Positions 25,523-48,984 of a stretch of DNA of 48,984 nucleotides are shown one piece after another. Within the stretch, counting starts at the first letter, position 1. The number at the start of each line of letters is the position of its first letter. The translations under genes and the position numbers were made by a program. The notes beneath the pieces are model-generated. The model was not told where the DNA came from. It made no database searches and was given only the letters and a program-made list of their open reading frames with translations. Location: IMG/VR virus record IMGVR_UViG_3300031837_000019; one strand, 5' to 3'. The DNA comes from a virus.

Positions 25523-25561
25523 GTTTAGTATCTTTCAGTGTTACCTCAATCTGATAAAGAA

Positions 25562-25587
25562 GGAGACTGAGATGTGCCTCAGTCTCC
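25562..25587 (-). terminator. intrinsic terminator-like hairpin inside the - arm
   Basis: Perfect 10-bp stem GGAGACTGAG/CTCAGTCTCC with a 6-nt loop, followed on the - strand by TTCTTTAT. Confidence 0.55.
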
Positions 25588-25608
25588 CTCAATACTTTAT
25601 CTACAGCT

Positions 25609-29658: not shown

Positions 29659-29686
29659 AGTATACCATACTAAATATTAGTGTCAA
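29659..29686 (-). promoter_or_regulatory. sigma70-type promoter candidate (TTGACA-16-TATACT) upstream of the tRNA-like gene
   Basis: On the - strand, TTGACA at 29686-29681, 16-nt spacer, TATACT at 29664-29659. The -35 element overlaps the stop of the polymerase C fragment. Confidence 0.45.
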
Positions 29687-30195
29687 TGACATTCTGCCCA
29701 ATTTGCTCCGCATTTGTAGCCACCTGTGAGTGGGACTTTAAATCCGATATCTGTTCCTGCAGTTTCAATGGCGTTAACACAGATTTTCCCAACTTCCTCA
29801 GAATCCTTGGTCGCTGCATCTAGTTGTCCTTCATCATGAATATTACCAACATAGAATCCATCAAGTCCTCGTCTCTTAATTTCATTTCTGGCAACAATAG
29901 CGGTCCTTTTCATAACTATTGCGCCGGCTGACTGGAGCTTATAGTTAAGCGCAGCGCTCTGGGCTGGGCAGCGAACGAAGCCTCCATCAATGGTTCGCAA
30001 CAGTCCGCCAGTTGCTCGAAACTCATCTTGGATATCTGCAGAGAGTCTGGAAAGTCCGGGAGTACCTCGCTCAAGGATTCCACGAGCCCATTTACCATAG
30101 TGTCTAGCTTCACTTCCTCGAAGTTCAGGGCGCAACGTGACTCCGAGCTTTGGATCGCCACCTCCATAGAGATACCATGTGTTTAACTGAGGTCG
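29683..30195 (-). CDS. polA: family A DNA polymerase, C-terminal fragment
   Basis: The frame is open from 30195. It encodes NTWYLYGGGDPKLG (rest of motif B, cf. T7 gp5 FLYGAGDEKIG) and VGNIHDEGQLD (motif C). The first canonical start is the TTG at 30135, downstream of motif B. Confidence 0.75.
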   Translation of the reverse strand, partial: RPQLNTWYLYGGGDPKLGVTLRPELRGSEARHYGKWARGILERGTPGLSRLSADIQDEFRATGGLLRTIDGGFVRCPAQSAALNYKLQSAGAIVMKRTAIVARNEIKRRGLDGFYVGNIHDEGQLDAATKDSEEVGKICVNAIETAGTDIGFKVPLTGGYKCGANWAECH

Positions 30196-30807
30196 TTAAT
30201 CTCAGCCCATATAGCTGCATGTCCCCATGCAGAGCAGACTATATCATCATCCGACTGTAGGGCCGGAGCTGGGCGCTTCCAGACACTTGTCTGTACTCTC
30301 TTTCGAGATAGTCGTTGCACCTTCTAGATATTCAATTGCCTTCTGGAGATTGCCTATATTGTCATCAAACAAACCTAATGCTTGATTACATTTAGGGCAC
30401 AGAAGTCCACGAATTAAACCAGTTAAATGATCATGGTCAATGGCTAATTTAGCCTTACCATTTCTGGCGACCACATATCCTTCAGAACCACATATCCTAC
30501 AATGTGGATCAGCAAACATATCTTCATACTGCTCTAAAGTAATACTATATGCTTTATGCAAATACCTTCTTGAGTATCTGCGTTCTGCACAAATATTAGA
30601 GCAGAATAAATGAGATGGTGCCACTGGTTGAAAATCTAAATCACATTCTCTGCACTTCTTAATCCTGAAAGAACCTTGGGGGTATTTATCAGGTGTTGCA
30701 GTAAAATGTTCTTGAGATTTATTCGTATTTTTGAATATCATGCTTGGCTCATGATTAGCTGTTCTAGCTTTCCCATGAGTTCACCCAGTTTTACTACTGC
30801 TACTTTA
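30196..30807 (-). mobile_element. homing-endonuclease insertion splitting the polymerase gene
   Basis: 612 nt between the two polymerase fragments, of which 495 nt are the Endo VII/HNH ORF. Confidence 0.55.
30247..30741 (-). CDS. HNH/Endonuclease VII-family homing endonuclease
   Basis: CRICGSEG......LAIDHDHLTGLIRGLLCPKCNQALGLFDDN is the Endonuclease_7-type HNH motif. Confidence 0.85.
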   Translation of the reverse strand: MIFKNTNKSQEHFTATPDKYPQGSFRIKKCRECDLDFQPVAPSHLFCSNICAERRYSRRYLHKAYSITLEQYEDMFADPHCRICGSEGYVVARNGKAKLAIDHDHLTGLIRGLLCPKCNQALGLFDDNIGNLQKAIEYLEGATTISKESTDKCLEAPSSGPTVG

Positions 30808-32142
30808 CTAACAGTAGAATCCGTTTTTAACGGTAAGATCACGCATTTCATCACTGAGGTTGAGGTTTCGAGTGTTAACGAGGTGGGGATCCCCAACAGT
30901 GAAGAGAATGGTGGCTTCAGGATTGTTAAGATATTCAGCAAACATACGCATTTCAAGGCCACTGGCATCATACCCAACTTCTCTTCGATTGGGTCGAGCT
31001 TGCCAAAGTCGTCTACATTCAATTCCATACCTGACCTTCTTCTTGGCCTTTGGGATATTCATAGTATTAGGGTTAAATCCAATCATACGTCTAGTAGATG
31101 CACCACATGTAAGAACCTGACCATGCATACAATGGTCATCATAGTTAACACAATTAAGCCAACCCTCGACCATTGTACTTCGGCCTTGTAAGACCAGCCA
31201 ATCCGCAAGGGCTTTGACTTCTACCTTACCTGAAATCTCAGCAAAAGATATTAATGCCTCTTCATCAACCTTTGGGAATCCCTTCTCGGTAAAGTTAAGT
31301 GGTTCCCACCCAAGATCTAGAAGACGATCAACTCGTTGTTTAGGTGATCCAAGATTAAAGTCTACCCAATCAAGGGTAGAATAGGTTCCGTCTCGGTTGT
31401 CTCGAACTTCGGGGTATTCTCTAAGATGTCGTAAATAGCTTGCAAATTCACTACCATCTTTTTTAGTTCGTCTTTCGTACGTTCTACTGACTTCCAATCG
31501 CCTTGGGAAAAGTTCGTGGATAGCGAATTCAGATTCAGATTGAACAGCCCTGAGGTAACCTGCGAGCGCCTGTGCTCCAGGGATATCAAAATACCATCCA
31601 TTTCTTTGTTGTTCATCTACAACTTCCCTGACTTCATGTTCGATCTGGCATGATAATTCACTGAAGCCTACCCTCCGCATACGTTGCCAAAGGGCTCGTG
31701 CAACTTTCTTACCAAGCTTTACATCTTGTTTACAGTAGGTCTCCATCTCAGGAGACCACTTAGACCAATCATTGAAGTCCCCTTTAGGGTCTCCAAGACG
31801 TATTCCCCAAGCCTCCAGAGAATGACCGCCGGAAAGCTTAGGATCATACAGGTAAGAAAGAACCAGAGTGTCAACAATATTTCGAGTACTTGCGGTACCG
31901 CCGACAAGACGACGTGTATGGGGTCCGTCATAGCTGACCGCATTATGTCCAACAAAATAGACTTCACTACCACGAAGACCATCAAAGAATCCTTTTATCT
32001 CGTCGTGACCACGAAAGGCCATGACCTCTTCTTGATCCATCCTGGAAGCACACAGAAGCCAGATACGTGACGGATATAGTGAGTCGGCTTCGATATCTAT
32101 ATACCAATACTTATGGTAATCTTCAGGTCTAGGTAGATACAA
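30808..32142 (-). CDS. polA: family A DNA polymerase, N-terminal fragment (3'-5' exo plus palm motif A)
   Basis: DIEAD (Exo I), VGHNAVSYDG (Exo II), YCKQDV (Exo III), SPKQRVDRLL, PNTMNIP, YDASGLEMRMFA (motif A). Ends RDLTVKNGFYC-stop inside motif B. Confidence 0.85.
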   Translation of the reverse strand: MYLPRPEDYHKYWYIDIEADSLYPSRIWLLCASRMDQEEVMAFRGHDEIKGFFDGLRGSEVYFVGHNAVSYDGPHTRRLVGGTASTRNIVDTLVLSYLYDPKLSGGHSLEAWGIRLGDPKGDFNDWSKWSPEMETYCKQDVKLGKKVARALWQRMRRVGFSELSCQIEHEVREVVDEQQRNGWYFDIPGAQALAGYLRAVQSESEFAIHELFPRRLEVSRTYERRTKKDGSEFASYLRHLREYPEVRDNRDGTYSTLDWVDFNLGSPKQRVDRLLDLGWEPLNFTEKGFPKVDEEALISFAEISGKVEVKALADWLVLQGRSTMVEGWLNCVNYDDHCMHGQVLTCGASTRRMIGFNPNTMNIPKAKKKVRYGIECRRLWQARPNRREVGYDASGLEMRMFAEYLNNPEATILFTVGDPHLVNTRNLNLSDEMRDLTVKNGFYC

Positions 32143-34844: not shown

Positions 34845-35327
34845 CTACTTCGCTCGGCTATCTCTTCCTCCCATTTGATTCATGGTTGATATGAGTATAC
34901 CCTCATTAAAATCTATGAGAATAAGATGTTTCTCCATGTCTTCTGGATGTTCGTAGTTATTTAGATCAGCCTGATATGGTTCATCATCTAGAATTAAATA
35001 GTGCGTTGTGTCGGGATGTTCTTTCAACCATTTGGCTACTCTTGTGTAACGCCAATTTTCGTTCTCATCACATATAGGATGTTCATGGAAATATTCTCTC
35101 TTGAGTCCTTCAATAATGCAATGCTCAAGAGTCTCGTTACTACCAATAGCCCGAATCCAGGAAGAATGTATAACAAGTTTCCAATTACGAACTAAACACC
35201 AATCATTAATAAGACCGACAGCAGCAGGGTCAAATTTCTTAACAAAAGGTTTGGTCTGCCCAGGCATAGCATATGCTCGATAAGGAATGAGAGGCCCGTC
35301 AATATCAAGAAATAGAATTTTAGTCAT
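34845..35327 (-). CDS. HAD-superfamily phosphatase-like protein
   Basis: MTKILFLDIDGPLIP contains the DxDG motif I of HAD hydrolases. Confidence 0.6.
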   Translation of the reverse strand: MTKILFLDIDGPLIPYRAYAMPGQTKPFVKKFDPAAVGLINDWCLVRNWKLVIHSSWIRAIGSNETLEHCIIEGLKREYFHEHPICDENENWRYTRVAKWLKEHPDTTHYLILDDEPYQADLNNYEHPEDMEKHLILIDFNEGILISTMNQMGGRDSRAK

Positions 35328-36003
35328 TTAAACCAAATGGGCGAAAAAGATTTGCATCAATAACTGCATCAACGATCATCGGACAATTTTTCTCCAGTAG
35401 ATAACCACAAGCAAATGCAATCTGTTGATGTTCTAACTGAGTTTCAGGACCTTGGCGAATAGATACATAATGTATCCAATCACGAAGAGTACCTTGCATA
35501 TACATACGAGTTGATGTCAGACCTTCAGGCAGAAGTTTACGGGCGAGCTCCTTAGCAATACCAACCGCAAGACATGCCTTATAGCCGGCCCAACAGATGC
35601 CCCAAACTTGATTCTGCCAGACTGACCACAAATCATTGATTTCAATGTCCGCAGTAGGGATGGAGTTCTGACGATTCTTCGGGTCTTTAAGTCTGGCTTG
35701 CGGCGACATTACCAGCTTCTCGTCCACTTCAGAATACCGCTGACTAAATTCTTGAAAGTGGAATGATCTGTGTCTCAAAATTTGACGAGCAATATCTCTT
35801 GTAGTCTCAATTTCAACGCACATACAGGCCATCTCAAATGGTGACCAATGATTATGATCAATTAAATACTTAATCAACTTTTCGGAAGGATCATCTGGTT
35901 TGGCAGACGGATTAGACACACGAGCCATGTGTGCCACCATCTTGTCGGCATCAGGCGTGATCCACTTAAGTTCGACTCTCAATCTGAAAACCTTAATGTA
36001 CAA
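35320..36003 (-). CDS. thyX: flavin-dependent thymidylate synthase
   Basis: ThyX signature RHRSFHFQEFS (RHR-x7-S) followed by QRY. Confidence 0.85.
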   Translation of the reverse strand: MYIKVFRLRVELKWITPDADKMVAHMARVSNPSAKPDDPSEKLIKYLIDHNHWSPFEMACMCVEIETTRDIARQILRHRSFHFQEFSQRYSEVDEKLVMSPQARLKDPKNRQNSIPTADIEINDLWSVWQNQVWGICWAGYKACLAVGIAKELARKLLPEGLTSTRMYMQGTLRDWIHYVSIRQGPETQLEHQQIAFACGYLLEKNCPMIVDAVIDANLFRPFGLND

Positions 36004-36254
36004 TAATTGATTTGCCCTTTCGAGTGAAGCAGCAGTACGATCTCATCGTTAAAATCGGCATCCATAACATATTGGTCTCCATAATCCATCAAATAGCGGG
36101 TGAGTTCCATAATCAGTTCGCTAACTCTCATCTTTTTTAGCTCCAAAAACTTGAGACCAAACCTCATGCATGGCTATACGTCGATGCTGACGATTAAATT
36201 TACGCTGAAGATTACGAACAGAGTTGATTGGTGAACTTAGACGTTGAGTATTAC

Positions 36255-36410
36255 CTATGAGGTTGTATCGCATTCTTGAGCCTCTTTTGTGTGATAATCC
36301 ATAAGAACTTCTTCAATAGCGGCTTGACAGACAACACAAGGCCCATATTCTTTATGGATTTTGTCATATGTAATTAAATCATCTTCACGGTTGCAGATAT
36401 AGCAACGCAT
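36255..36410 (-). CDS. small zinc-ribbon protein (51 aa, not in the ORF track)
   Basis: MRCYICNREDD..GPCVVCQAAIEE has two CxxC pairs. Its start overlaps the upstream stop (TGATG). Confidence 0.45.
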   Translation of the reverse strand: MRCYICNREDDLITYDKIHKEYGPCVVCQAAIEEVLMDYHTKEAQECDTTS

Positions 36411-36664
36411 CAGATAATCTTAATCCTTGTATCTAGTCCTAGTTCTTTTGCCAAATACGAAATTCGATCTTCAGCTTCATTTAAACGAGCTTGAGCAGCC
36501 TGTTGGGCAACATTTGAAAGGTGGTCAGCTTGAGCCCATCTAAGTTGAGCGCGATTAGTGTCAAGACCCCAAATGGCATCAGAAATCTTTCTAGATAACG
36601 CTCGAAGAGCGTGTTCAGGATCAGAATATTCTTGAACTTCAAATGGTTTTGGCTGATATCGCAT
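36410..36664 (-). CDS. hypothetical protein
   Basis: 84-aa ORF of helical character. Confidence 0.5.
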   Translation of the reverse strand: MRYQPKPFEVQEYSDPEHALRALSRKISDAIWGLDTNRAQLRWAQADHLSNVAQQAAQARLNEAEDRISYLAKELGLDTRIKII

Positions 36665-36685
36665 ATCAGAACCTCCTAGTATAGT

Positions 36686-37075
36686 TTACTGGCCTGTTTC
36701 TACCATTGGGAAATTATCGTCTGCATACTCAAGCACAAATTGACGTTCTGGTAGAGTTTGAAGTGATGCACACATATTCATAAGTCGTTGCCTTACAGAC
36801 AACGGAACAGCATACGGATCAGGGAAAAACCCCACTACATTGTCACATCTAGTGAATAGTGCCGTTTTCTGAGCATCCGTCAAGCCGAAAGGTAGGATAT
36901 TATTCCTATCTTCCCACGGAAGAGTATCGTCTTTTAGCATATCTTTTTCAAAAATACCGTACACACCATAAAGTTTAGAACTAACATCATACCCATACTT
37001 ATTGATCAAGATTTGTTCTAGTACAAAAGGAAGATCATGTCTAAGTTTAAGTGTTCGCTTGATTGGATTAGGCAT
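36686..37075 (-). CDS. hypothetical protein
   Basis: The ATG at 37075 overlaps the ATP-grasp stop by 8 nt. The track start at 37204 lies inside the ATP-grasp gene. Confidence 0.5.
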   Translation of the reverse strand: MPNPIKRTLKLRHDLPFVLEQILINKYGYDVSSKLYGVYGIFEKDMLKDDTLPWEDRNNILPFGLTDAQKTALFTRCDNVVGFFPDPYAVPLSVRQRLMNMCASLQTLPERQFVLEYADDNFPMVETGQ

Positions 37076-37817
37076 TGGCAAGTGCTGTAAGGGCTGCGGC
37101 GTATGCAGGGACTGTTTCCCCTTCAATACCCGGTGCAGTATTGACTTCAAGGACATAGAAATTTCCCAACTTATCCTCAATGATGTCCACGGCCCCGAAG
37201 TCAAGTCCGAGCGCCCGAACGGCGTCTACCCCCAACTCATCCCGAGTTTCGTTGGGGGGAATATTCTTACGTTGATAAATAAATCCATTCTTCCAAGACC
37301 TGACCTTCCAATTGGTCGGCTCTCTTTTTGGGTCTCGAATCTTTCTATGAGTAGCGAATGCACCAAGACAAGTTGCATGAACTCTGAATTCTTTGTCTTT
37401 GAATATGTATTTAGTATACAATTTGGAATCTACAAGCTCATCACCCGGTTCCATTATAACGATACCAGCACCTTCATGACCTGTCAAGATCGTCCGAGCA
37501 ACTACTGTATCACCATTATCTAACCACTCTTGGGCTATAGCCTTATTCTCAGTCCAAGGAACAGTCTGAACTCCGGCATTAGTTAGATAGTGAAAGGTTT
37601 TTCGTTTATTAACAGCTTTATAGATTGCTTCACAAGAATTAATATGAATGTGATTAGGAAGGTGCGGCCAAGCCTTATCGTCACCAACGCCCCATGAGAT
37701 AACTACATCACCTTCTTCGACAAGCTTACCGAGACGCATACGACGGAACCCTTGTTCCTTAGACAAGAAGTAGGCACCTTCAGAGGGGCGGTTCCCAGAG
37801 AATACCCAGAGTGTCAT
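37068..37817 (-). CDS. ATP-grasp carboxylate-amine ligase (RimK-like)
   Basis: VVARTILTGHEGAGIVI, KEFRVH and GLDFGAVDII..FYVLEVNTAPG are typical ATP-grasp elements. The ATG at 37817 overlaps the upstream stop (ATGA). Confidence 0.75.
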   Translation of the reverse strand: MTLWVFSGNRPSEGAYFLSKEQGFRRMRLGKLVEEGDVVISWGVGDDKAWPHLPNHIHINSCEAIYKAVNKRKTFHYLTNAGVQTVPWTENKAIAQEWLDNGDTVVARTILTGHEGAGIVIMEPGDELVDSKLYTKYIFKDKEFRVHATCLGAFATHRKIRDPKREPTNWKVRSWKNGFIYQRKNIPPNETRDELGVDAVRALGLDFGAVDIIEDKLGNFYVLEVNTAPGIEGETVPAYAAALTALANA

Positions 37818-38698
37818 GAAGCTTCCTTCCATGTGGAGCAGAAGGCTAAATCTTGAGCATTCCGCATACCACGTTTGAGCATATTTTCATAGCCATCAAC
37901 AGTTAAATATTTACGAGACATAGGCCCTAGCACATCTTCTAGAAATCCTTTAGGGCCTGTTAGACTAAATTTACGAATAATTTCAGCCGGATTAGTATAA
38001 TTTCTTGCCCGTTCTTTCATTGTCTGAAGTGTCTTGATCCAATGAATAATACGTCCATAATGGATTGAACACTCCATTGCACGAAACTCAATTGATCCAT
38101 ACTTTAGTAGGCTAGCGAAGTTGACAGATGCATAACGATCATCAATCTCAATACCGAAGAAATTATTTCCATTCTGAATAGACCTAATAAGACCGACGGC
38201 AATACCGTAAGCGTCTGTCACTCTAAGACAGAAATTATTACCAATTCGATGATCTCCGGCTTGTGATGTTAGGAGTTCATCAAGAGTGATAGACAGGACC
38301 ATCATATTATATATGGTTCGGTAAGTCTCGTGGGCAAAGTTCAAATGCACATGAACTGAAGTACGGTATGAATCATACACAACAGCCGGGGGCGTTTTAA
38401 TAAAATCCAGGAGAATTGCTAGAGAAATCTCAATATTCTCAAATGTCATCGGATGTTTAGATACGTACTCTATACACTCATCTCCATGGCTGAGTGCTCT
38501 CAAAGAATTCTCAGGATGAACTACCCAATATCTGGATATATTGGCAGATTTCTTTGAGATATTCTGACCTTCAAGTTCAATCTCAACGCCGAATGCGTCA
38601 GCGTGATTTCTGGCCTCAGAGTGAATAGGGATTTGCTCAATAAGTTTCCTATTGAGTTGCATGGGAAGCGTGTACACCACTATTCTCCTCAATTGCAT
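37814..38698 (-). CDS. glutamine-synthetase-like amidoligase (Amidoligase_2-type)
   Basis: FGVEIELEG near the N-terminus, VHVHLNF, and GSIEFRAME near the C-terminus. The start could instead be 38662. Confidence 0.65.
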   Translation of the reverse strand: MQLRRIVVYTLPMQLNRKLIEQIPIHSEARNHADAFGVEIELEGQNISKKSANISRYWVVHPENSLRALSHGDECIEYVSKHPMTFENIEISLAILLDFIKTPPAVVYDSYRTSVHVHLNFAHETYRTIYNMMVLSITLDELLTSQAGDHRIGNNFCLRVTDAYGIAVGLIRSIQNGNNFFGIEIDDRYASVNFASLLKYGSIEFRAMECSIHYGRIIHWIKTLQTMKERARNYTNPAEIIRKFSLTGPKGFLEDVLGPMSRKYLTVDGYENMLKRGMRNAQDLAFCSTWKEAS

Positions 38699-39302
38699 CC
38701 GAAAGGTGTTCAGTTAAATAAGAATAGTTATCAACTAATTTAAAATCTTTCAAATTCTGTGTAAATCCGACGGGTTTTCCACGGTATTCTAGAGTAAAAT
38801 CACCGCGGATTGCATTAGGTTGCAACGCGAAATCTTTATGAAATGCAACTATCTTGCGTTTTTCAGTTCGTAATATCTCTTCTGCCGAGAGAATTGTCGG
38901 GTAACTATTAGAGAGCATCATAACTATCGATTTACTGAAAGTAAAATCATCATTAACATACCCACTATAATGAGAGTGCCAACTTAATTGATCTCTTCTC
39001 AAACCTTGTCGCCACTGACGCACAGCTCGACGATACCACCAAATTGCTGCTTCACTCGAATTAGCATATCCGATTGCGTAGTCTCGATAAGATAAGTTAG
39101 GATCATTATTTAAATCGATAGACTTAATACAACCAGTAATACCACTTACAACTAGATGATAGGTCCAGACTTCAGGATTCTCTTTTGACTGAACACAGCC
39201 ACAATCTTTAACGTACATAGGCACCCCATCATAATAGATGATGGTCGAAACAAACTTTGTATGGATATCGTTTAGGTTATCAAACTGACATCTAGCCGTC
39301 AT
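38649..39302 (-). CDS. hypothetical protein within the ligase operon
   Basis: 217 aa; TAATG coupling to the upstream gene; no motif recognised. Confidence 0.55.
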   Translation of the reverse strand: MTARCQFDNLNDIHTKFVSTIIYYDGVPMYVKDCGCVQSKENPEVWTYHLVVSGITGCIKSIDLNNDPNLSYRDYAIGYANSSEAAIWWYRRAVRQWRQGLRRDQLSWHSHYSGYVNDDFTFSKSIVMMLSNSYPTILSAEEILRTEKRKIVAFHKDFALQPNAIRGDFTLEYRGKPVGFTQNLKDFKLVDNYSYLTEHLSDAIEENSGVHASHATQ

Positions 39303-40129
39303 TAAGCCACCTTCGGTAGTGGCTCCAAGCCGAGATCATAGTAGATCACGCTTTCAGGCCAATTTGTTTCGTTATTGTCTATAATACTACGAGCAAGATC
39401 ACCATAGAAATCTTCTGCCCAATTATCTGAGAAAGCGTCTGCCATTGCGCATTGCACAGAGTTATAAATCCATCGCATCAGCGGTTCTGAGTCGAGCCAT
39501 TTGTTTGAGAGCACACGATATTCGATGCCATACGGCTTTGGTCGGAAGGCCCCTGCTCGTCCGTAGAGTTTACGCCGTATGCTGTCCCTATCCCAAAGAA
39601 CAGAATATACACCGATATAATGATCAAGTTGCCTAGCAATACGGCAGGCATATATGAAGGTTTCTTTGTCTTCAATGTCGAGGTCATTCGACCATCCTAT
39701 ATGTATATGCCCTGCAGCGGTCCTGAATGGCTCACCACCGGGGTTTGGTCTTGGGTTGATATCCATGGTCCATGCATTAAAGTCTGGCATACAGCCCAGC
39801 TCCTGGGCGTAAGACGGGACCTCCCATCTGAAATACCCTGCATCATACCGGGCCACTGGCTCCGCTACAACATTATAACCGGGGACCATCTCTGTGAGTG
39901 TCTTACGGACAGACGTGATATTACGTACGAACTCGTCAATCGTTGACGCTGGATCGATATTAAACTCAAGAGCAGTTCCATCAACTTGAACCGCCCCATT
40001 TAGGACCTTATAAGGTTTAGCCTTAGTCCCCGGAATGCGGCCGTGGGCAGACACAAAAGACCCATTATCTGGGTCTCTCATAAACAGTTCAGGATCAGCC
40101 CCAATGAGGACTGTGTTCTTGATATTCAT
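39302..40129 (-). CDS. phage-type COOH-NH2 ligase (GCS2-like, phiEco32-like family)
   Basis: N-terminal IGADPELFM, later AAGHIHIGW, matching my recollection of the phage COOH-NH2 ligase type 2 family. Confidence 0.6.
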   Translation of the reverse strand: MNIKNTVLIGADPELFMRDPDNGSFVSAHGRIPGTKAKPYKVLNGAVQVDGTALEFNIDPASTIDEFVRNITSVRKTLTEMVPGYNVVAEPVARYDAGYFRWEVPSYAQELGCMPDFNAWTMDINPRPNPGGEPFRTAAGHIHIGWSNDLDIEDKETFIYACRIARQLDHYIGVYSVLWDRDSIRRKLYGRAGAFRPKPYGIEYRVLSNKWLDSEPLMRWIYNSVQCAMADAFSDNWAEDFYGDLARSIIDNNETNWPESVIYYDLGLEPLPKVA

Positions 40130-41254
40130 TTAGACTCCATAGGCGGCTATTTCGTAGATTTCCTGAGTGTCATAACAGTCGCCACAAATGAACGGGGTGT
40201 GATAACCATGATAAGGCCCAATGACATAAATGAGATCACCCCAAACGATGTCCGTTTTATTGCAGAACGCACACCCTTCAGCAACCATCGGGGTAAACTT
40301 CTTCTTGTTGATAACGAAGCCTTTGTTATCTTTGTACGGGGCTCGAAATCGTCCCTCACGATAGGGCCTATCACTAAACGGAACTGGATCGTTGATCTTA
40401 AAATTAGCAGTAGAGGCCGTATTCTGCGTTCCAGTCACGAGCTTCTTTTGAAAATTGTTCGACGATCCTTTCTTCAAATTTGAAGAAGAATGGCCTTCGT
40501 AAACCCAGGTGTACTTACCCTCTATCTTCTCCTGACCCGGAAAGTCAAACTTATCCGATATCATGGCGGGGATAGTCCAGCTATAGTGGGTGTCTTCCGT
40601 AACACTAAAAATAAGGTCCTCACCTTCTTTGTCTTTAACAATATCCTTGTCATTGCGATCAAGGATATATTTCATAAGGCCCATTTCAGAAGACCAAATA
40701 AGTGTGCTTCGATCTTTAGAGTATGTATAGTATAGTGGTCTACGATCATTGCGTATGAAATTTATCGTATTATTACGACGATCATACCAAGTCAAAGCCC
40801 AAGCGCCCATAAGACTCTCAATCGTATCTTTGACAGATCGTTCATTCAGTGTCGCAATAATCGCTTCAGAATCGGTACCGAACCTATCAGAATGGTGTAG
40901 GTCAGCTAAGCACCACTTTTCTAGTGTCCCATTGTGTGCGCCAACGATATGTTCAAACTGAAACGGGTGCGCATTGGCTTCTGTCTTCTCACCAACTGTG
41001 GCAAAACGATTATGACCAATAATAACCTTAGGTGGCACAGTGGATTTATCCATCGCATCCTCAAAATCTTTTTCAGCTAACAGAATAAAGGGATGTCCTG
41101 GTTTTTTAATTACTTTGAAACTAGAATCATATCGACTAACAAAAGCTGCGCCAGTAGCATGTGGACCTCTAACCACATCAAAAATAAGCAATTCTTGAAA
41201 TACGTCTTTCCATTTGCCAGTTGTATCGCCGGCAATCCCAACTAAGCCGCACAA
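40130..41254 (-). CDS. class II (Ntn) glutamine amidotransferase with C-terminal zinc ribbon
   Basis: MCGLVGIAG places the nucleophile Cys at position 2. GHNRFAT, AHPF. C-terminal CAFC..CGDC. Confidence 0.75.
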   Translation of the reverse strand: MCGLVGIAGDTTGKWKDVFQELLIFDVVRGPHATGAAFVSRYDSSFKVIKKPGHPFILLAEKDFEDAMDKSTVPPKVIIGHNRFATVGEKTEANAHPFQFEHIVGAHNGTLEKWCLADLHHSDRFGTDSEAIIATLNERSVKDTIESLMGAWALTWYDRRNNTINFIRNDRRPLYYTYSKDRSTLIWSSEMGLMKYILDRNDKDIVKDKEGEDLIFSVTEDTHYSWTIPAMISDKFDFPGQEKIEGKYTWVYEGHSSSNLKKGSSNNFQKKLVTGTQNTASTANFKINDPVPFSDRPYREGRFRAPYKDNKGFVINKKKFTPMVAEGCAFCNKTDIVWGDLIYVIGPYHGYHTPFICGDCYDTQEIYEIAAYGV

Positions 41255-41898
41255 AGGTTAGTAATCTCGGCAAGATACTGAACCATCAGACCAATACAAT
41301 AGCTGGCAAAAGCAGTATTAGGGACGTATTCAGGGTGCCCTTGGATACAAAGGCTGTGTGTATTAGGGTAGTAAACAATTTCAATATCATCCTTGATCTT
41401 CCCTCGAATTTCGGCATATTCACACCGCTTAAGTGTTGACTCATTAGCAATAGCAAGAATGATGGCATCTTTACCGGGTATCATCATTTGATGATGCGTC
41501 GATGTGCATTTCATGATCACTCCCATTTCTAGGACTGTCATGTCGTGATCATGTTCATGATTGTTAACATCTTGCCAGAGAGAGCCGCCATTTAAACAAT
41601 TAAGAAGCTGAGCTCCCCGACAAATACCCACCTTCAACTTAGGTGCATCACGAACACTATTAAAAATATCAATCTCTAATTTATCCCGTATACTTGGCAT
41701 TTTTTGATGTGTATAGATAGGGTTCTCATTATAAATAGATGTAGCAATGTCTTCACCGCCATTAAAAACAATAATATCTACTTCTAACAAATTCTCAGGA
41801 TTAACATTAATCATACCCTCATTTTGGAGGAGATGAGCCATAGACCCACCATAATCTCCATCGTATATAGAACAAAAGGTAGTTTGTTTATTGACCAT
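41242..41898 (-). CDS. class I glutamine amidotransferase / peptidase C26-like (gamma-glutamyl hydrolase type)
   Basis: GICRGAQLLN (nucleophile elbow) and IQGHPEY (His-x-Glu). Confidence 0.75.
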   Translation of the reverse strand: MVNKQTTFCSIYDGDYGGSMAHLLQNEGMINVNPENLLEVDIIVFNGGEDIATSIYNENPIYTHQKMPSIRDKLEIDIFNSVRDAPKLKVGICRGAQLLNCLNGGSLWQDVNNHEHDHDMTVLEMGVIMKCTSTHHQMMIPGKDAIILAIANESTLKRCEYAEIRGKIKDDIEIVYYPNTHSLCIQGHPEYVPNTAFASYCIGLMVQYLAEITNLCAA

Positions 41899-42769
41899 TA
41901 ATCAATGCCTCGTACATTATGAATTGTTGTTGAAGTACCTGGGGGATATCTGCTTGAGGCATAAATTCATCACCGATATTTGCAAAAACCACCGGTTCTG
42001 CTGGCGCAATATCTATCAGCTTATCACCTTTATTACGTCTTGTACGGCTAGGCGCGATGACCTGAGAAGTTTTCTCAACACCATAGAAATAGATAATCTC
42101 TTCATCAGTCATCTCTATCATAAATTTATTGTTCCTACGACCCCAGATAATATTACATGGGGTACATCCTGACGGATCAATTTTAAAGGAGTCAGAAGAT
42201 GAACAGACTTCACCTCTCAAAATACTTAACCAATCAGATGTCGTATCAAACCAGAGGTGCTCTCCTATCTCTTCAACATTATGTAAATAAGACAAAAGAA
42301 AAGCCATTGTTGGCCCTACTCCAGATTTAACTAGGCGGTCCCATTCAAAAAGAAGTATTCTATGCTCAATTGGAACCCTAGTTGCGATACAATAATTGTA
42401 CAAAACATTTGCAGGCCATTTATCAAGATCAGAACAATGGATGAAATATTGACCATCAATACTCTCTATTGATATAAGGTCTGACCAGCCCTTAAATGGT
42501 CCAGAAATCAGCATACGTTGGTATGCAACATCAATGGGCTTTTTATTAGGCATAGCAGTTATCAGGTGATCAAACCCACTATCTAAATCGACCATATCAG
42601 AATGGCATACTCTTAGAGTTTTCAGATGAATGTCGAGGCAGTCCTCCGTCCATACCACCCAAGATGATGGGGTATTATTATCAATAGAACAATAACTATT
42701 AAAAAGTTCTGGGAGATATTTATCAACGATACAATCAGAGATTTTATTTTTCAGTATTTCTTGTACCAA
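41888..42769 (-). CDS. hypothetical protein, first gene of the ligase operon
   Basis: 293 aa; TTG start with AAGAAGG upstream; no motif recognised. Confidence 0.55.
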   Translation of the reverse strand: MVQEILKNKISDCIVDKYLPELFNSYCSIDNNTPSSWVVWTEDCLDIHLKTLRVCHSDMVDLDSGFDHLITAMPNKKPIDVAYQRMLISGPFKGWSDLISIESIDGQYFIHCSDLDKWPANVLYNYCIATRVPIEHRILLFEWDRLVKSGVGPTMAFLLSYLHNVEEIGEHLWFDTTSDWLSILRGEVCSSSDSFKIDPSGCTPCNIIWGRRNNKFMIEMTDEEIIYFYGVEKTSQVIAPSRTRRNKGDKLIDIAPAEPVVFANIGDEFMPQADIPQVLQQQFIMYEALINGQ

Positions 42770-42883
42770 TGTTGACCTTCTTTAATGGAGTTAAACTCAA
42801 CATTAAAGGAAACATATATATATATAAACTATATATTATATTATATATTAATATATACCCTCCTTAAGGGCCTCCTAAGAGAT

Positions 42884-43946: not shown

Positions 43947-44792
43947 TTAAGACATGAAAATTTTAAGGAATATTTCTTTCTGAGCAGTCTCTTCAGCAGA
44001 CCTAGCAGCAGATTCAGCGCCATACCTAGCAGACCAATTAACAGACTCAGCAGCAGACCTAGCAGACCAAGCAGCAGACTCAGCAGCAAACCTAGCAGCC
44101 TCAGTAGCACACCTAGCAGACCAAGCAGCACACCTAGCAGACCCAGCAGCAGACTCAGCAGCCTGAGCAGCACACCTAGCAGACCAAGCAGCAGACTCAG
44201 CAGCATACCTAGCAGACCTAGCAGCAGACCTAGCAGCAGACCTAGCAGCAGACCTAGCAGACTCAGCAGCAGTCTCAGCAGCAGACATAGCAGACCTAGC
44301 AGCAGACCTAGCAGCAGACTCAGCAGCAGACTCAGCAGCAGACTCAGCAGCAGACTCAGCAGCAGACCTAGTAGCAAACCTAGCAGACCTAGCAGACTCA
44401 GCAGCATACCTAGCAGACCTAGCAGCAGACTCAGCAGCAGTCTCAGCAGCAGACATAGCAGCAGACCCAGCAGCAGACCCAGCAGCAAACAAAGCAAACT
44501 CAGAAGCAGCCCTATCGGCTGTAATATCAAGCCAATTTTGAGTCGCATCCAGGGCGACTTTTACTCTTTGGTCTGTATTATGGTGCTGAACACGTTGAGA
44601 ACACAGAAGAGCAAACTGAACACATTCACATTTCATACTTAAACGTCCGGCTACCCACAGAAGATCTGGTATTAAAACACCGAATTCTATAGCCTGTTTG
44701 GCGTTTAAATATTTACGACGCCCGAAGTTAGGAATTTTAGCTAATGAACAAGGCTCTAGGGCGACGATCTCTTCATATGTTAGCTTAATCAT
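43947..44792 (-). CDS. Ala/Ser repeat protein with helical N-terminal domain
   Basis: The ATG at 44792 is preceded by GAGGGG. The N-domain (LLWVAGRL..CVQFALLCSQRVQHHNTDQRVKVALDATQNWL) is followed by about 170 aa of SAA(E/R/W)/SAR repeats. Confidence 0.65.
   Translation of the reverse strand: MIKLTYEEIVALEPCSLAKIPNFGRRKYLNAKQAIEFGVLIPDLLWVAGRLSMKCECVQFALLCSQRVQHHNTDQRVKVALDATQNWLDITADRAASEFALFAAGSAAGSAAMSAAETAAESAARSARYAAESARSARFATRSAAESAAESAAESAAESAARSAARSAMSAAETAAESARSAARSAARSAARSARYAAESAAWSARCAAQAAESAAGSARCAAWSARCATEAARFAAESAAWSARSAAESVNWSARYGAESAARSAEETAQKEIFLKIFMS
43990..44510. repeat. imperfect in-frame tandem repeats (9-, 12- and 15-nt units)
   Basis: For example, four perfect copies of gcagcagactca at 44311-44358; many agcagacct and agcagcagacct variants. 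Confidence 0.9.
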
Positions 44793-45060
44793 GATTATTA
44801 CCCCTCTGATGAATTTTAGAGAGCAGTTTAAGGACATGCTCAGGTCAGAGGCTCATTTACTTAAGCAGAGCAGCGATATTAGCAGACACACGACGAGCAT
44901 CTGTGGATTCATCTTGATGTTCTCCGATCTGAAGATTCAAGTTAGCCACTACATCCGTCTTACGTTGCGCCTCATAAAAATGATGCTCAGCAACAGCATT
45001 GAGCTTATGTGGGGCTACCAAAAAGAAAGAGGCGAATACGCTTGAGTAGTTCCAGCATGA

Positions 45061-45436: not shown

Positions 45437-45574
45437 GTTAATAGCAAGTCAGTTGTATGAGTGGTTTAAGGTTGCGTAATGGCCCACCCCGAGTATGTGT
45501 GGTGTTTCCGTTTCCCCTCACACAAAACGCAAAGAATTCCATCAATGCGCCTTGCTCATCTAACTGAGCAATAG

Positions 45575-45859
45575 TTACAAATTGTTGAGATGACTAATCA
45601 GTTCAGACTCATCATCCCACTTTAGAAACGGAAACGCCTTTATGACGTTATGCAAATAACTACCAACGGATTCCGCATTACGGAGACCCGAATAGATTTC
45701 TTGTGAAGGCATAGCGGGGTGGTGAATTTCGTAAGAATAGAGCCCGCCAGACAGGAAACGAACAGCGATTGTGTCCGTTTGTTCATCAAAAGCCACAGCA
45801 TCCACATTACTTGAGGTGACTTCCTCCCAAGCAATCTCCGATAAGGCTGTTTGTCGCAT
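45575..45859 (-). CDS. KTSC domain protein
   Basis: SSNVDAVAFDEQTDTIAVRFLSGGLYSYE..P...Y..L..AESVGSYLHNVIK fits the KTSC pattern with a central YxY. The ATG at 45859 is preceded by AGGAGA. Confidence 0.65.
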   Translation of the reverse strand: MRQTALSEIAWEEVTSSNVDAVAFDEQTDTIAVRFLSGGLYSYEIHHPAMPSQEIYSGLRNAESVGSYLHNVIKAFPFLKWDDESELISHLNNL

Positions 45860-45916
45860 TTCAATATCTCCTAATTCATAATACACCTACCTAACCACAC
45901 TCGGTTGAGCATGAGA

Positions 45917-46018
45917 GAGCACACACAGCGGTTTTGGCCTTACGGGTCATTGTCTGTATGGCGTTTGAAGCCATAAAACATGCATTTGCCGGTTAATGGT
46001 CCAGTTGTGTATGTGCTC
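45917..46018 (-). other. long-loop stem with arms gagcacacaca / tgtatgtgctc
   Basis: 10 of 11 arm positions pair. The mismatch is C-A on + strand RNA and G-U on - strand RNA. Shares the 14-mer tgtatgtgctcact with 46541-46554. Confidence 0.5.
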
Positions 46019-46088
46019 ACTGATACTCAAATAGTGACCTTACCTGAACAATTGAAGATCAGGATGATTATGACAAATATTGACCCAA

Positions 46089-46244
46089 TCATGGCGATTT
46101 GATCACGTTATCGGCGTGACTGAACACACCATTTACGGTGCCGCCAAGTCGAGACATCGTACCAATGAGAAACAAGACCATCAAGCACAACAGCAAGCCA
46201 TATTCAGCCGCAGATGCGCCGCATTCATCTGTGAGATATTTCAT
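46089..46244 (-). CDS. flp: Flp/Fap-family (Tad, type IVb) prepilin-like protein, 51 aa
   Basis: Hand translation gives MKYLTDECGASAAEYGLLLCLMVLFLIGTMSRLGGTVNGVFSHADNVIKSP. It has the G/ASAAEYG processing motif plus a hydrophobic helix, as in Caulobacter PilA (DESGATAIEYGLIVALIAVV). GGGGA lies 7 nt before the ATG. Confidence 0.7.
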   Translation of the reverse strand: MKYLTDECGASAAEYGLLLCLMVLFLIGTMSRLGGTVNGVFSHADNVIKSP

Positions 46245-46509
46245 GATTAAATCCCCAATAAAGCCCCCGAATTGAGCAGTTTAACGACTGCAAATATCTG
46301 CTGCACCATCCGGGGGGCGGTTAGATGGGGCAGAAAGATGTCTACTGCTGCTCAGGTCGCTCATAAGCCAGACAACAAAATCCCACTACCCTCTAGGTGT
46401 AATGGACATAACATCAATCTGACTTACAATTCACATCCTTTATATTTATGCTCATTAGTTTACCCACATAGAGCGAGGTGCATAACCACAGATAATCTTG
46501 TGGTTGGGA

Positions 46510-46551
46510 GAGCACATACACACAGAGTTGTGGCGATGCATGTATGTGCTC
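46510..46551 (-). other. perfect 11-bp stem-loop gagcacataca / tgtatgtgctc
   Basis: 20-nt loop; lies about 65 nt downstream (- sense) of the stop of the 254-aa gene. Confidence 0.6.
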
Positions 46552-46617
46552 ACTAAATCACAAGTAATAGTTACGCCCCCAAAGCTTTCACCCTGAGGGC
46601 GCAACCATTAGGCGTTG

Positions 46618-47382
46618 TTATTGGGCGTTGGCCGCTTCGACCTGTGCAGTGGCGCGCTTCAGATCGGCCTCTGCCTTCCGAGCATCTTGCGTCGCATCGG
46701 AGAAGCTGTTGAGCGTCTGAAGAACACCCTCAATCTGGTCGAAGGCTGTGTCCATCTTGTCCAGATGAATACCGTCGTAGAACGGCTTCCCTGGAACAAT
46801 CGGACCCACGACCTTACCGTCAACGATCTTGGTGTTGTCGATGGCACGAGTGTACTCACGCCTAGCCGCTTCAAGCTTGGCAACGATGCCGCCCTTGAAT
46901 ACGGGCTTGAGCGCATCAACCTGTTCAGCGGCCTTGGCTAGGGTCCAGAACGGATTGGCCATGGCCTCTTCGATCCGCCATGGACGCGGTTGACCGTCCA
47001 GAGTACCGGACAGCTTGATGACGTCCTTAACAAGCTCCATGGGCGTGTATTCGCGCATATGGAAGATGATTCCCTTTACGCGATATCCATGGGCAGGGAG
47101 CTTGTCAGCGGCCTGGAGGACCTCCACCAACAGACGACGTGTCAGTGAGGTGTCCCCATGCTTTTGAGTATGGAGATAACACTGAATGAGGTTGTTGTGG
47201 ATACGTCTATCAATGTCTGACAGGTTCGCCTTGATGACGTTCTGGTCAGACTTGATGACTTCCTTGTCCCACAGGATGAATTGTGGCTTCCCATCAACGA
47301 CCTTAGCCATTTCGGGAAGGACCAATTCAGCTTGGTTTTTCGGTTCCATAGTGTGTAGGTTCCCTTTTGCAGTCACTACCAT
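46618..47382 (-). CDS. hypothetical protein (254 aa)
   Basis: Long GC-rich ORF with a coiled-coil C-terminus. Its start codon lies inside the inverted-repeat arm 47378-47407. Confidence 0.65.
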   Translation of the reverse strand: MVVTAKGNLHTMEPKNQAELVLPEMAKVVDGKPQFILWDKEVIKSDQNVIKANLSDIDRRIHNNLIQCYLHTQKHGDTSLTRRLLVEVLQAADKLPAHGYRVKGIIFHMREYTPMELVKDVIKLSGTLDGQPRPWRIEEAMANPFWTLAKAAEQVDALKPVFKGGIVAKLEAARREYTRAIDNTKIVDGKVVGPIVPGKPFYDGIHLDKMDTAFDQIEGVLQTLNSFSDATQDARKAEADLKRATAQVEAANAQ

Positions 47383-47407
47383 TAGTGCTGCGCAGAGTAG
47401 ATGAGAC
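47378..47407. repeat. 30-bp inverted repeat, left arm
   Basis: The reverse complement, gtctcatctactcTgcgcaGcactaatggt, matches 47981-48010 at 28 of 30 positions. Confidence 0.9.
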
Positions 47408-47645: not shown

Positions 47646-47956
47646 GTCAGATACACAGGAATTGGGACAACACGATACTTTGCATTGAACCCGAATTTCC
47701 GATTACTATTTCGGAGCTTGTTACGATAACTCTGAGCCTCAATGGTCATTTGGGCTTTCGTTCCGATGCGGATCGGACCCAACTGTCCACCTACCGGCGG
47801 GAACCGGCAGAGAAAAGGTTCATAAATGACGTTAGACGTCCCGAGAATTGCATAGAGCATGGATAAACCCTCTGGTTTCATGATTGAATGAACACTGCGA
47901 TATGAAGACCACATATTTGGACAGACGACTATGTGAGATGTTATTGATTTTTGCAT
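47642..47956 (-). CDS. hypothetical protein (104 aa)
   Basis: ORF with AAAGGGG about 10 nt upstream of the ATG. Confidence 0.5.
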   Translation of the reverse strand: MQKSITSHIVVCPNMWSSYRSVHSIMKPEGLSMLYAILGTSNVIYEPFLCRFPPVGGQLGPIRIGTKAQMTIEAQSYRNKLRNSNRKFGFNAKYRVVPIPVYLT

Positions 47957-47980
47957 GAGCAGTGACCCCTTTCCAAAGGC

Positions 47981-48010
47981 GTCTCATCTACTCGGCGCAA
48001 CACTAATGGT
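47981..48010. repeat. 30-bp inverted repeat, right arm
   Basis: gtctcatctactcGgcgcaAcactaatggt. Confidence 0.9.
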
Positions 48011-48451
48011 TGCGTGCTTAGGGATCACTCAGACATTGCATAATGCAATGCTGGGGCTCAACCCAAGCGTAAGACGTTGCTTCCCCTCAATCTCACAGTC
48101 ATCCCACATCGAACGGCAAACGGATTGCTAGGCCCGTTCACCGCCTCATGGGTGCGAGATTGTGGGGCCAGACCAGTGACGGATCGAATTACCCAAGCGT
48201 CCCGGCCGCTTTAAGCCGGTCTATAGCTCGGCACGCTCCCTGACGGTCTAGCGTCCCAAATCGGCACTTACCATTTGGCAGTTACCAGTCACCAAGGCCC
48301 TTAACAGCGACACCCTTATTGGAGACCATACACGATCGCCCAGACAGTTAGCCTAGGTTAGATCGGTTGATCCTTATAGGTGTCACCAGAGGTGCATATG
48401 CCCTTGGCCGGGTCCTGACCGGACCTCGTTTGTAGTCCGTATGTTATAACC

Positions 48452-48685: not shown

Positions 48686-48819
48686 GGCAAGTCTCCTTAG
48701 CCGCTAGGGTTCACGCGGTCCAAGCGGACCTTGCGTGGTCTCGGGGGTGTGTCCCCTTTGACAAGACCAGGTATAGCACTACGTTTTGCAATAGTCTAAT
48801 CACGAATGCGTGATGTGGT

Positions 48820-48856
48820 TTATCGTTTATCGATATATTGTTATCGTTTATCGATA
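48820..48856. repeat. two perfect 16-nt direct repeats (ttatcgtttatcgata) spaced 21 bp apart
   Basis: Copies at 48820-48835 and 48841-48856. Each contains the palindrome tatcgata. They lie in the divergent control region. Confidence 0.9.
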
Positions 48857-48857
48857 C

Positions 48858-48984
48858 GGTTAATTCCTACCGCTGCAATGAGGATTTGCATGTTGCAATA
48901 CCCTACCTGGGGGGTAGGATAAAGTGGGGATCCGACAGAGCGTTTTTGAGGTCACCTCTTTTATTTTATAAAAAAATGAAGTTT
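48858..48984. repeat. terminal direct repeat, right copy
   Basis: Identical to nt 1-127. Confidence 0.95.

Follow-up and report, generated by a model that had tools for sequence, protein, structure and literature searches.

A solitary Flp-family prepilin gene among the early genes of a seemingly virulent podovirus from environmental metagenomes

The IMG/VR virus record IMGVR_UViG_3300031837_000019, a DNA sequence of 48,984 nucleotides (nt) that we call the window, contains a short open reading frame (ORF) on the minus strand at positions 46089-46244. Sequence comparison indicates that this ORF is very probably a real homologue of the Flp-family prepilins of type IVc (Tad) pili, carried by a phage. 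Tad/Flp pili are widespread adhesins and known phage receptors, as for PhiCbK and PhiCb5 on Caulobacter. The reading that we favor, with a probability of roughly 0.55, is that the ORF is a functional, solitary Flp prepilin gene, an accessory and moron-like cassette whose product would modify or block the Tad pilus receptor.

Identity and predicted processing of the phage prepilin

The protein MKYLTDECGASAAEYGLLLCLMVLFLIGTMSRLGGTVNGVFSHADNVIKSP is the exact translation of the ORF, which starts with an ATG at 46244-46242 (minus strand). Direct translation reproduced the position, strand, length of 51 codons and amino acid sequence given in an initial annotation of the window, and the Shine-Dalgarno (SD)-like GGGGA claimed there is present at 46256-46252, with a spacing of 7 nt. 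The last 6 kb of the window contain 61 ORFs of at least 30 amino acids (aa), so the length of 51 codons is by itself within chance; the homology described below exceeds chance. The initial annotation had also called the gene hidden and had placed it in a GC-rich early block. It was indeed missing from the 60-aa ORF track used at that time, but the identical protein is already in a public collection, as a called gene on 30 contigs with the Joint Genome Institute (JGI) name 'Flp pilus assembly pilin Flp'. The block is somewhat richer in GC, but only mildly: the GC content is 48% in the Flp ORF (54% at third codon positions), 50% in the 46-47 kb interval and 45% in the genome.

A search with the Flp/Fap profile PF04964, which had been proposed as a check, gave a significant match (E = 8.1e-7), in which residues 4-45 aligned to profile positions 2-43 of 46. 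Its score of 29.2 bits, however, is below the curated gathering cutoff of 32.2 bits, and the precomputed contig annotation gives PF04964 for the ORF with the flag 'weak'. An exhaustive phmmer search of 1.84 billion (1.84e9) representative proteins matched 102 proteins at E <= 1e-3 (best E = 2.5e-6), nearly all of them 50-160 aa long. The best short matches themselves match PF04964 (35 of 35, best E = 3.7e-19) and align across the whole phage protein, with G9, E14 and Y15 invariant. With a Flp hidden Markov model (HMM) built without the phage sequence, the ORF scored 80.5 bits; the next-best of 1,034 stop-to-stop segments of the window scored 3.5 bits, and the best of 2,000 shuffled versions of the protein 14.4 bits. 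These results bear out the proposal of a phage-encoded Flp/Tad prepilin-like gene, a full-length Flp homologue within a tailed-phage genome.

NCBIfam and PHROGs gave no match for the Flp ORF, and no PHROG family matched any of 36 Flp sequences; the missing PHROG family informs on rarity and not on function. A word-indexed homologue search returned only the identical protein, and exact-peptide scans of IMG/VR with the Flp ORF or with its KTSC-domain neighbor yielded no match. The cellular Flps did not point to a host: among the matches listed, the closest (46-49% identity, 65% GC) are from soil metagenome-assembled genomes of Terriglobales and Caulobacteraceae, and these share no phage genes.

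The protein contains a leader, a Gly with the following xxxxEYG site and a hydrophobic helix, all as initially described (MKYLTDECG/ASAAEYG). Gly9 is followed by ASAA, by Glu14-Tyr15-Gly16 and then by a hydrophobic stretch, which reaches a Kyte-Doolittle 15-residue maximum of 2.6 at residues 16-30. AlphaFold2 predicted a single helix (residues 2-49; predicted local distance difference test score, pLDDT, of 82), and a Foldseek search of this model against the PDB returned nothing, as expected for a lone helix. We took column conservation from 94 cellular Flp proteins. D6, E7 and G9 occupy family columns conserved at 77%, 82% and 99%, and wherever a column is strongly conserved, the phage protein agrees with the majority of the family (D6, E7, G9, A10, A12, E14, Y15, G16, L17, L21, I27, G28, L33, G34 and F41). 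Rare or minority residues are found in the core helix: C20 (2%), M22 (5%), V23 (12%), F25 (11%), M30 (5%) and R32 (3%).

The family profile matched the Caulobacter Tad pilins 8u2b (E = 7e-14) and 8u1k (E = 2e-13). The solved 45-residue mature chains of 8u1k and 8u2b start with ATAIEYG, precisely where the phage protein has ASAAEYG, showing that the comparison with Caulobacter PilA made in the initial annotation was right. The mature part of the phage protein and 8u1k were aligned over 42 residues without a gap (26% identity). Based on the alignment with the solved mature chains, we predict a mature phage pilin of 42 aa that follows a 9-residue leader. In Caulobacter PilA, a 14-residue leader is cleaved, and Glu19 and Tyr20 (mature positions 5 and 6) participate in a hydrogen-bond network of the filament core; both are required for assembly and not for processing (PMC11067988). 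Because of this requirement, the kept Glu and Tyr of the phage protein argue for a filament-related role and not for a generic membrane peptide.

Overall, the phage protein resembles cellular Flp/Fap proteins (Caulobacter crescentus PilA, 8U1K, 8U2B) in its size, in the short charged leader ending with DExG, in the AxAxEYG mature N terminus and in the single amphipathic helix without a globular domain, in which L21, G28, L33, G34 and F41 are kept. In contrast to cellular Flps, it has a very short leader of 9 residues (14 in Caulobacter), its helix is unusual in its Cys, Met, Phe and Arg residues, it is 40-60% identical to its best cellular matches, and its gene has no tadV, rcp or tad genes close by.

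The window spans the full genome of a tailed phage, a podovirus of ~49 kb. Its rightward genes (0.4-22 kb) encode TerS, TerL, a P22-type portal, a scaffold, the major head protein (phrog_283), a head-closure or tail adaptor (phrog_578), large tail or internal proteins and a lysozyme. Among the leftward genes (23-48.7 kb) are those for a class II ribonucleotide reductase (RNR), ThyX, a T7-type primase-helicase, a split family A DNA polymerase and endonuclease I, and an amidoligase/glutamine-amidotransferase gene block. Metagenome contigs of the same phage join both window ends, so that TerS adjoins the early region; accordingly, the genome is circularly permuted or terminally redundant. No integrase, repressor or partition gene is present among the precomputed Pfam calls, which cover every gene, and by its gene content the phage looks virulent. 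The nearest isolated phages are distant (portal identity of 33% at most), and the primase-helicase is ~40% identical to those of Pelagibacter, roseobacter and Ralstonia podoviruses.

Linkage of cellular flp genes to a tad/cpa locus is typical, although not universal. In the phage, none of the called genes belongs to the Peptidase_A24, T2SSE, T2SSF, secretin or TadE families, and the Flp HMM revealed no second Flp copy in the genome. Since no other tad gene is present, the orphan pilin would depend on host machinery.

Flp genes in related and unrelated viruses

Two phages related to the window phage, L009/L071 and L070 (the latter a contig of 49.7 kb), agree with the window in gene order: genes for a 76-aa and a 254-aa protein are followed by a gap of similar length, the KTSC-domain gene and a gene for a 128-aa protein. 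L009/L071 and the window phage are 81% identical in TerL, 78% in the portal and 46% in the 254-aa protein; the 254-aa protein of L070 is 50% identical to that of the window. No Flp-like ORF was found in L009/L071 or L070, and when the gap that contains Flp was aligned at the nucleotide level with its syntenic counterparts in L009 and L070, neither homology nor a Flp remnant was detected. Since the syntenic relatives lack Flp and the gap sequences are unrelated, we consider Flp an accessory gene that is specific to its lineage and occupies a variable slot. In their syntenic gaps, L009 and L070 have a 76-nt block in common (79% identity; 6241-6316 and 3145-3219, respectively, in locus coordinates), which is missing in the window phage.

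Two scans of IMG/VR (2.9 million contigs), in which only 59 and 112 pattern stretches matched, uncovered Flp genes in other viruses. The first scan yielded six Flp loci, and the second, which was anchored on canonical Flp, yielded 31 loci, 3 of them on the same contigs as L011, L012 and L014. Altogether, solitary Flps are present in at least 30 other viral contigs, where they lie amid phage genes and not in tad operons. The initial annotation had suggested a search of related phages for the ORF: the gene is missing in the two closest relatives, and solitary Flps occur in other viral contigs. The closest homologue found is on a contig with 68% GC (L010); its Flp is 56% identical and has the same ...NGVFSHA tail. 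In L014, ~900 bp separate Flp from TerL, and portal and major head genes follow farther on. L015 has the major-head and connector families of the window phage, and its Flp lies within the structural module, but on the opposite strand. Distant relatives of the window phage that carry Flp are L089 (TerL 47% identical), L093 (portal 30%) and L096 (PolA/primase 25-31%). Because L015, L089, L093 and L096 carry Flp at different positions, we propose that it was acquired repeatedly and independently. Two tandem Flp genes adjoining tail genes were seen at 9726-10180 of L013, an alphaproteobacterial-type, siphovirus-like contig with a gene transfer agent-like tail protein (phrog_4271).

We also conducted a Pfam scan of 103 ORFs flanking 30 of the second-scan loci. 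Recurrent flanking families were Terminase_3 (5 ORFs), NusG (5), Terminase_2 (3) and DUF2280 (3); PhageMetallopep (2 ORFs), P22_portal, DNA_pol_A, resolvase, integrase and methyltransferase families were seen once or twice. Only 1 of the 103 ORFs was TadE-like, and the 25 of 29 flanking families listed include neither an assembly ATPase nor a prepilin peptidase or secretin.

In the L014-like prophages, the two parts of the Flp protein differ strongly in conservation. In pairs with 92-97% identical TerL, Flp residues 1-32 are 87-94% identical, and the part from residue 33 to the end is only 39-56% identical. Moreover, the Flp N terminus is nearly the same even in phages whose TerL types differ (43% identical). 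In these prophages, Flp may therefore be a mobile cassette whose surface region is diversifying; fast C-terminal divergence is the pattern expected if an exposed surface is diversifying. Across the L014-like loci L072-L081 (Flp at ~4001-4180 of each locus), the identity is 87-97% in the N-terminal 32 residues and 39-70% in the C-terminal part.

Among GenBank phages, Flp genes were not detected. Searching 50,697 GenBank phages by tblastn with the phage Flp and a canonical viral Flp gave no match, with the low sensitivity of a 50-aa hydrophobic query under a low-complexity filter, and blastn searches of GenBank phages with the Flp locus and with the last 9 kb of the window were also negative. 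In the literature, we found no description of the function of a phage Flp or of Flp in a virulent phage. Flp pilin genes are listed from annotation, as putative adherence factors, in the Vibrio harveyi prophages phi345 and phiGANI1709 (PMC12482185), and a Flp pilin gene is annotated in phiLM21-like prophages of Sinorhizobium meliloti (PMC12429752). The window phage shares with them a solitary Flp-family pilin gene as phage cargo. Compared by description, those prophages are integrated and temperate and their genes were annotated by BLAST/COG, whereas the window phage shows no lysogeny genes and carries Flp in its early region. The initial view that a Flp prepilin is unusual for a phage therefore needs qualification: such genes are rare, with no PHROG family and none detected in 50,697 GenBank records, but they recur in >30 IMG/VR contigs and have precedents in prophages.

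Proposed role and alternative explanations

According to the reading that we favor, Flp would be transcribed early with the other leftward early genes, and its 51-aa product would insert in the inner membrane. The host prepilin peptidase TadV/CpaA would cut the 9-residue leader after Gly9, and the 42-aa mature pilin, with its Glu5/Tyr6 pair kept, would be taken up by the host Tad machinery, where it would co-assemble with the host Flp or displace it. The receptor surface would thereby be altered, or the bulkier core residues would destabilize the pilus, and pilus-dependent phages (rivals or the own progeny) would no longer adsorb productively to the infected cell. Here, expression, leader cleavage, incorporation in the pilus and the anti-adsorption benefit are steps that we infer. 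Engagement of the host Tad peptidase or machinery by the phage Flp is likely; since the residues for cleavage and assembly are kept and the phage has no machinery of its own, host TadV/CpaA and the Tad apparatus would be its most economical handler.

The C-terminal half of the Caulobacter pilin is surface-exposed and is bound by phage PhiCb5 (PMC11067988). Four pilin substitutions distinguish strain NA1000, which is not a host of PhiCb5, from the host strain. N43R and T51A lie at the contacts with Mat and remove them, and the authors propose that this explains the lost adsorption (PMC11067988). By analogy, the C-terminal half of the phage mature pilin is expected to be surface-exposed. Because this half forms the surface of Tad filaments, a phage pilin in the filament would change the receptor surface.

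The closest functional precedents are phage-encoded subunits of type IVa pili. FimU minor pilins encoded by Pseudomonas aeruginosa prophages (P-FimU) become part of the type IVa pilus and block phages that bind the pilus tip (Sztanko et al., Cell Rep 2026, PMC12952977). The same study describes PilA-like genes (P-PilA) in Xylella prophages and in four non-temperate phage groups, including 60-residue, N-terminal-only forms, and superinfection exclusion has been proposed for phage pilins (PMC12952977). Like P-FimU and P-PilA, the phage Flp is a host pilus subunit encoded without its own assembly machinery, so that handling by the host is expected, and the common working model is that a receptor component is swapped and phage adsorption is blocked. 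Like P-PilA-like genes, which are also known from virulent phages, it occurs in an apparently virulent phage. The exposed parts of the type IVa subunits are highly diverse, and so is the C-terminal part of the L014-like viral Flps. In contrast to both, it belongs to the type IVc/Tad class and is a single helix of ~42 aa without a globular head. Moreover, whereas P-FimU is a minor pilin of the tip, Flp would be a major subunit. Based on the P-FimU/P-PilA analogy, the early position, the apparently lytic lifestyle, the phage-binding C-terminal surface and the C-terminal hypervariability, we favor modification or disabling of the Tad pilus receptor, in the sense of superinfection exclusion or progeny protection, as the purpose, although this assignment is tentative and could well be wrong. 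Still more speculative, and rather more doubtful than probable, is the generalization that solitary Flps are a convergently acquired counter-receptor device of virulent and temperate phages, in which a rapidly diversifying major pilin of the phage would re-surface or disable the Tad pilus early and so keep competitors or the own progeny from adsorbing.

A second precedent is archaeal. The pilins PilA1 and PilA2 of the Natrinema provirus SNJ2 hijack host machinery and become the dominant filaments; the SNJ2-encoded pili promote biofilm formation and motility and are used by another virus as its receptor (Xiang et al., Cell Rep 2025, PMC12426801). The viral Flps resemble the SNJ2 pilins as virus pilins without their own secretion machinery and with multiple independent acquisitions from hosts, and the tandem pilin pair of SNJ2 compares with the two Flp genes of L013. 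Unlike the Flp phage, SNJ2 is an archaeal, temperate pleolipovirus; its pilins are unrelated in sequence, and its pili do not serve exclusion. The P-FimU/P-PilA and SNJ2 precedents give better motivation to the hypothetical roles put forward in the initial annotation, namely capping or poisoning of the pilus, superinfection exclusion and titration of the peptidase.

The receptor or adhesin could be lost by another molecular route if the phage Flp were a dominant-negative 'poison' pilin or a peptidase sponge, which would engage TadV or the assembly platform, form no stable filament and shut down piliation. The Tad filament core relies on tight packing and on the Glu-Tyr hydrogen-bond network (PMC11067988), and C20, M22, V23, F25, M30 and R32 are bulky or rare residues at positions where the core helix usually has Ala, Ile or Val. 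Such residues could block co-assembly, which would favor a poison variant or no pilus role. Truncated phage PilA proteins are proposed to inhibit assembly (PMC12952977), and D3112 Tip and Pf PfsE, as summarized in PMC12426801, are non-pilin phage inhibitors that abolish type IV pili by binding PilB or PilC. Tip and PfsE are, like the phage Flp, small phage proteins; they remove a pilus receptor from the infected or lysogenic cell, and PfsE is also a tiny hydrophobic peptide; unlike the phage Flp, they are not pilin homologues and have no prepilin processing motif. The phage Flp, however, is full length and keeps all hallmark assembly residues, including G28, L33, G34 and F41, and each of its 'rare' residues is found in some cellular Flps. 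We regard poisoning as rather unlikely. Somewhat less probable still is a conversion of adhesion or colonization, in which an extra or more highly expressed major pilin would raise or change Tad-mediated attachment or biofilm formation and, for example, keep infected cells in dense host patches. The Flps of the V. harveyi and S. meliloti prophages have been interpreted in this way, as virulence or adherence factors (PMC12482185, PMC12429752), the dominant SNJ2 pili promote biofilm formation and motility (PMC12426801), and a prophage-like context, in which integrase or resolvase genes lie nearby, is seen at many of the IMG/VR loci that carry Flp. The window phage, in contrast, has a T7-like lytic replication module and lacks integrase, repressor and partition genes, which would leave little time for a benefit from adhesion, and placement in the early region fits host takeover or exclusion better.

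Two further explanations dispense with the pilus, and both are very improbable. As a single-pass hydrophobic helix of 51 aa, encoded by a phage that has no tad genes, the protein could be an exapted small membrane protein that perturbs the membrane, acts in lysis timing like a holin or antiholin, or targets another inner-membrane machine; its likeness to Flp would then be ancestry. Against this, it keeps residues relevant only to prepilin processing or filament assembly (G9, E14 and Y15; PMC11067988), it is encoded 24 kb away from the lysis genes (lysozyme, 21239-21694), and the same intact motif is present in >30 independent viral Flp genes. Alternatively, the ORF could be a non-functional passenger, either a piece of a host flp gene that was captured recently or an ORF that is not expressed, in line with its lack in the two closest relatives and with the lack of variation among its copies that could show selection. 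Yet the ORF is uninterrupted and of full length, its SD is well spaced, its GC content is phage-like and not the ~65% of the closest cellular Flp loci among the matches listed, and the upstream motif and start context are common to neighboring early genes. In addition, the identical gene is present on at least 23 contigs from several samples, and intact solitary Flps recur across many phage lineages.

Several points weigh against a functional receptor-modifying pilin, the reading that we favor. The PF04964 score (29.2 bits) is under the gathering cutoff of 32.2, and C20, M22, M30 and R32, which are rare in the family, could prevent co-assembly. The gene is dispensable in the two closest relatives, L009/L071 and L070. 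The recovered copies of the window phage are all 99.9-100% identical (8 contigs compared over 2.1 kb), and an identity of ~100% among all copies gives no measure of purifying selection. Furthermore, nothing in the tail genes points to pilus binding.

The use of phage-encoded pilus subunits as anti-phage devices was shown only recently and only for type IVa pili. The phage Flp would extend this strategy to a different pilus type and is not a new principle. It adds a clean Flp example in an apparently virulent environmental podovirus, the finding that solitary Flps recur in unrelated viral contigs by the dozen and, for a single prophage lineage, a surface-exposed half that diversifies much faster than the terminase. 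If the favored reading is true, 'receptor replacement' would be extended to a third pilus class. The general counter-receptor device would have no earlier case among type IVc/Tad pili, and it would be the first virus replacement of the major subunit in a filament of 'headless' pilins. Hosts of Flp phages would be marked as Tad-piliated, providing a host-prediction marker for uncultured phages, and the 42-residue module would be easily engineered for studying Tad assembly and phage-pilus specificity. The main value lies in the data on recurrence and C-terminal diversification and in a compact, testable system.

Early region around the Flp gene and other features of the genome

The Flp gene lies alone in a 730-bp interval between the gene for the 254-aa early protein and the KTSC-domain gene (Table 1). 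The motif upstream of its start is also present at 44821-44833 and 45459-45471, so that three minus-strand copies of CGTTAAACTGCTC are located 5' of three consecutive early genes. The pattern CSTTAAACYRCTC has 4 matches in the window (0.41 expected), of which 3 are on the minus strand, all before consecutive early genes. The context of ribosome binding site and start codon, GGGG(A/T)..AATCATGA, is common to Flp and the gene of the 281-aa early protein. A scan for the sigma-70 consensus detected no minus-strand promoter directly upstream of Flp. The 373-nt spacer upstream of Flp, which contains two long hairpins, folds better than shuffled sequences (minimum free energy, MFE, z = -4.6). The core GAGCACAYACA has 4 copies in the genome (0.03 expected), and all of them bracket Flp as two inverted-repeat elements. 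In the relatives L009 and L070, an inverted repeat (loop of ~64-95 nt) is found at the equivalent site upstream of the KTSC gene. The SD, the shared upstream motif and start context, the phage-like GC content and the flanking repeats suggest that the Flp gene is integrated in the early expression program of the phage.

Table 1. Location of the Flp gene, its flanking elements and other features in the window
Feature	Position	Strand	Basis or comment
Flp-family (type IVc/Tad) prepilin coding sequence	46089..46244	-	51 aa + stop; translation, PF04964, homologues, independent HMM
Predicted leader, residues 1-9 (MKYLTDECG)	46218..46244	-	Putative cleavage after Gly9; family alignment
Predicted mature pilin, residues 10-51 (ASAAEYG...IKSP), 42 aa	46092..46217	-	Gap-free alignment with 8u1k
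Shine-Dalgarno-like GGGGA	46252..46256	-	7 nt 5' of ATG; read directly from the sequence
Upstream motif CGTTAAACTGCTC	46274..46286	-	~30 nt 5' of Flp start; candidate promoter or regulatory site for early genes
Second hairpin, 24-nt arms, GAGCACATACA core	46497..46564	-	Upstream of Flp; inverted repeat and fold
Near-perfect hairpin, 20-pair stem	46565..46610	-	Just 3' of 254-aa gene; terminator-like or putative RNA-processing site; MFE fold
Upstream neighbor, 254-aa early protein (phrog_1448), no assigned function	46618..47382	-	Synteny anchor; homologues in L009/L071 and L070 (46-50% identity)
Downstream copy of inverted-repeat element	45905..46033	-	Arms 46008-46033 and 45905-45927; between Flp and KTSC gene; direct and inverted repeats
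Downstream neighbor, 94-aa KTSC-domain protein	45575..45859	-	PF13619 (precomputed annotation); synteny anchor; homologues in L009 and L070
Peptidase_C26	41242-41898		Hypermodification-like cluster
GATase_6/7	40130-41254		Hypermodification-like cluster
COOH-NH2 ligase	39302-40129		Hypermodification-like cluster
Amidoligase_2	37814-38677		Hypermodification-like cluster
ThyX	35320-35982		Hypermodification-like cluster
HAD_SAK_2	34845-35327		Hypermodification-like cluster
dGTP_diPhyd_N	25983-26330		Hypermodification-like cluster, further along
DUF4406	25609-25986		Hypermodification-like cluster, further along
YAcAr	25026-25361		Hypermodification-like cluster, further along
Class II RNR	23131-25029		Hypermodification-like cluster, further along

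The 281-aa early protein (phrog_18326; 43947-44793, minus strand) consists in its C-terminal two-thirds of a degenerate tandem array. The array (43994-44487) contains ~44 copies of a 12-nt unit, with sub-periods of 9, 21 and 33 nt, and encodes repeats of the A-A-E/R-S-A type. For this gene, an alternative frame on the same strand, Leu-rich and 201 aa long, is given by some of the gene callers used for metagenomes. A repeat-number polymorphism of the protein (201 versus 281 aa across contigs) was considered and rejected, since the difference reflects the frame chosen by the gene caller.

At the start of the leftward early region, ~590 nt (47861-48451, minus strand) have no gene call and fold better than shuffled sequences (z = -4.3). 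A 40-nt block in this stretch (~48386-48425) is 87.5% identical in the related phage L009. The stretch has no Rfam match, and the Rfam and tRNA scans of the window were empty. Long-range inverted repeats connect 47378-47407 with 47981-48010 (30 nt, 93% complementarity) and 46591-46611 with 48003-48023 (21 nt, 86%). The core CTAATGGTTGCG is common to these repeats and to the hairpin 3' of the 254-aa gene; as related hairpin arms are present at several early-gene boundaries, they may serve in processing or termination. Two direct copies of TATCGATAAACGATAA, ~23 nt apart, are located in the non-coding sequence between terS and the first early gene (~48815-48860, minus strand) and are candidates for an operator, an origin or a packaging-related repeat.

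Two observations concern the leftward replication and nucleotide metabolism genes. The genes at 36000-42800 (minus strand), 25026-26330 and 34845-36003 (minus strand) form a cluster that suggests nucleotide or DNA hypermodification (Table 1). The family A DNA polymerase is encoded in two ORFs (29683-32022, minus strand), at 30808-32022 (404 aa) and 29683-30135 (150 aa). Between the polymerase halves lies a gene of the Endonuclease_7 family (30247-30741), which looks like a homing-endonuclease insertion.

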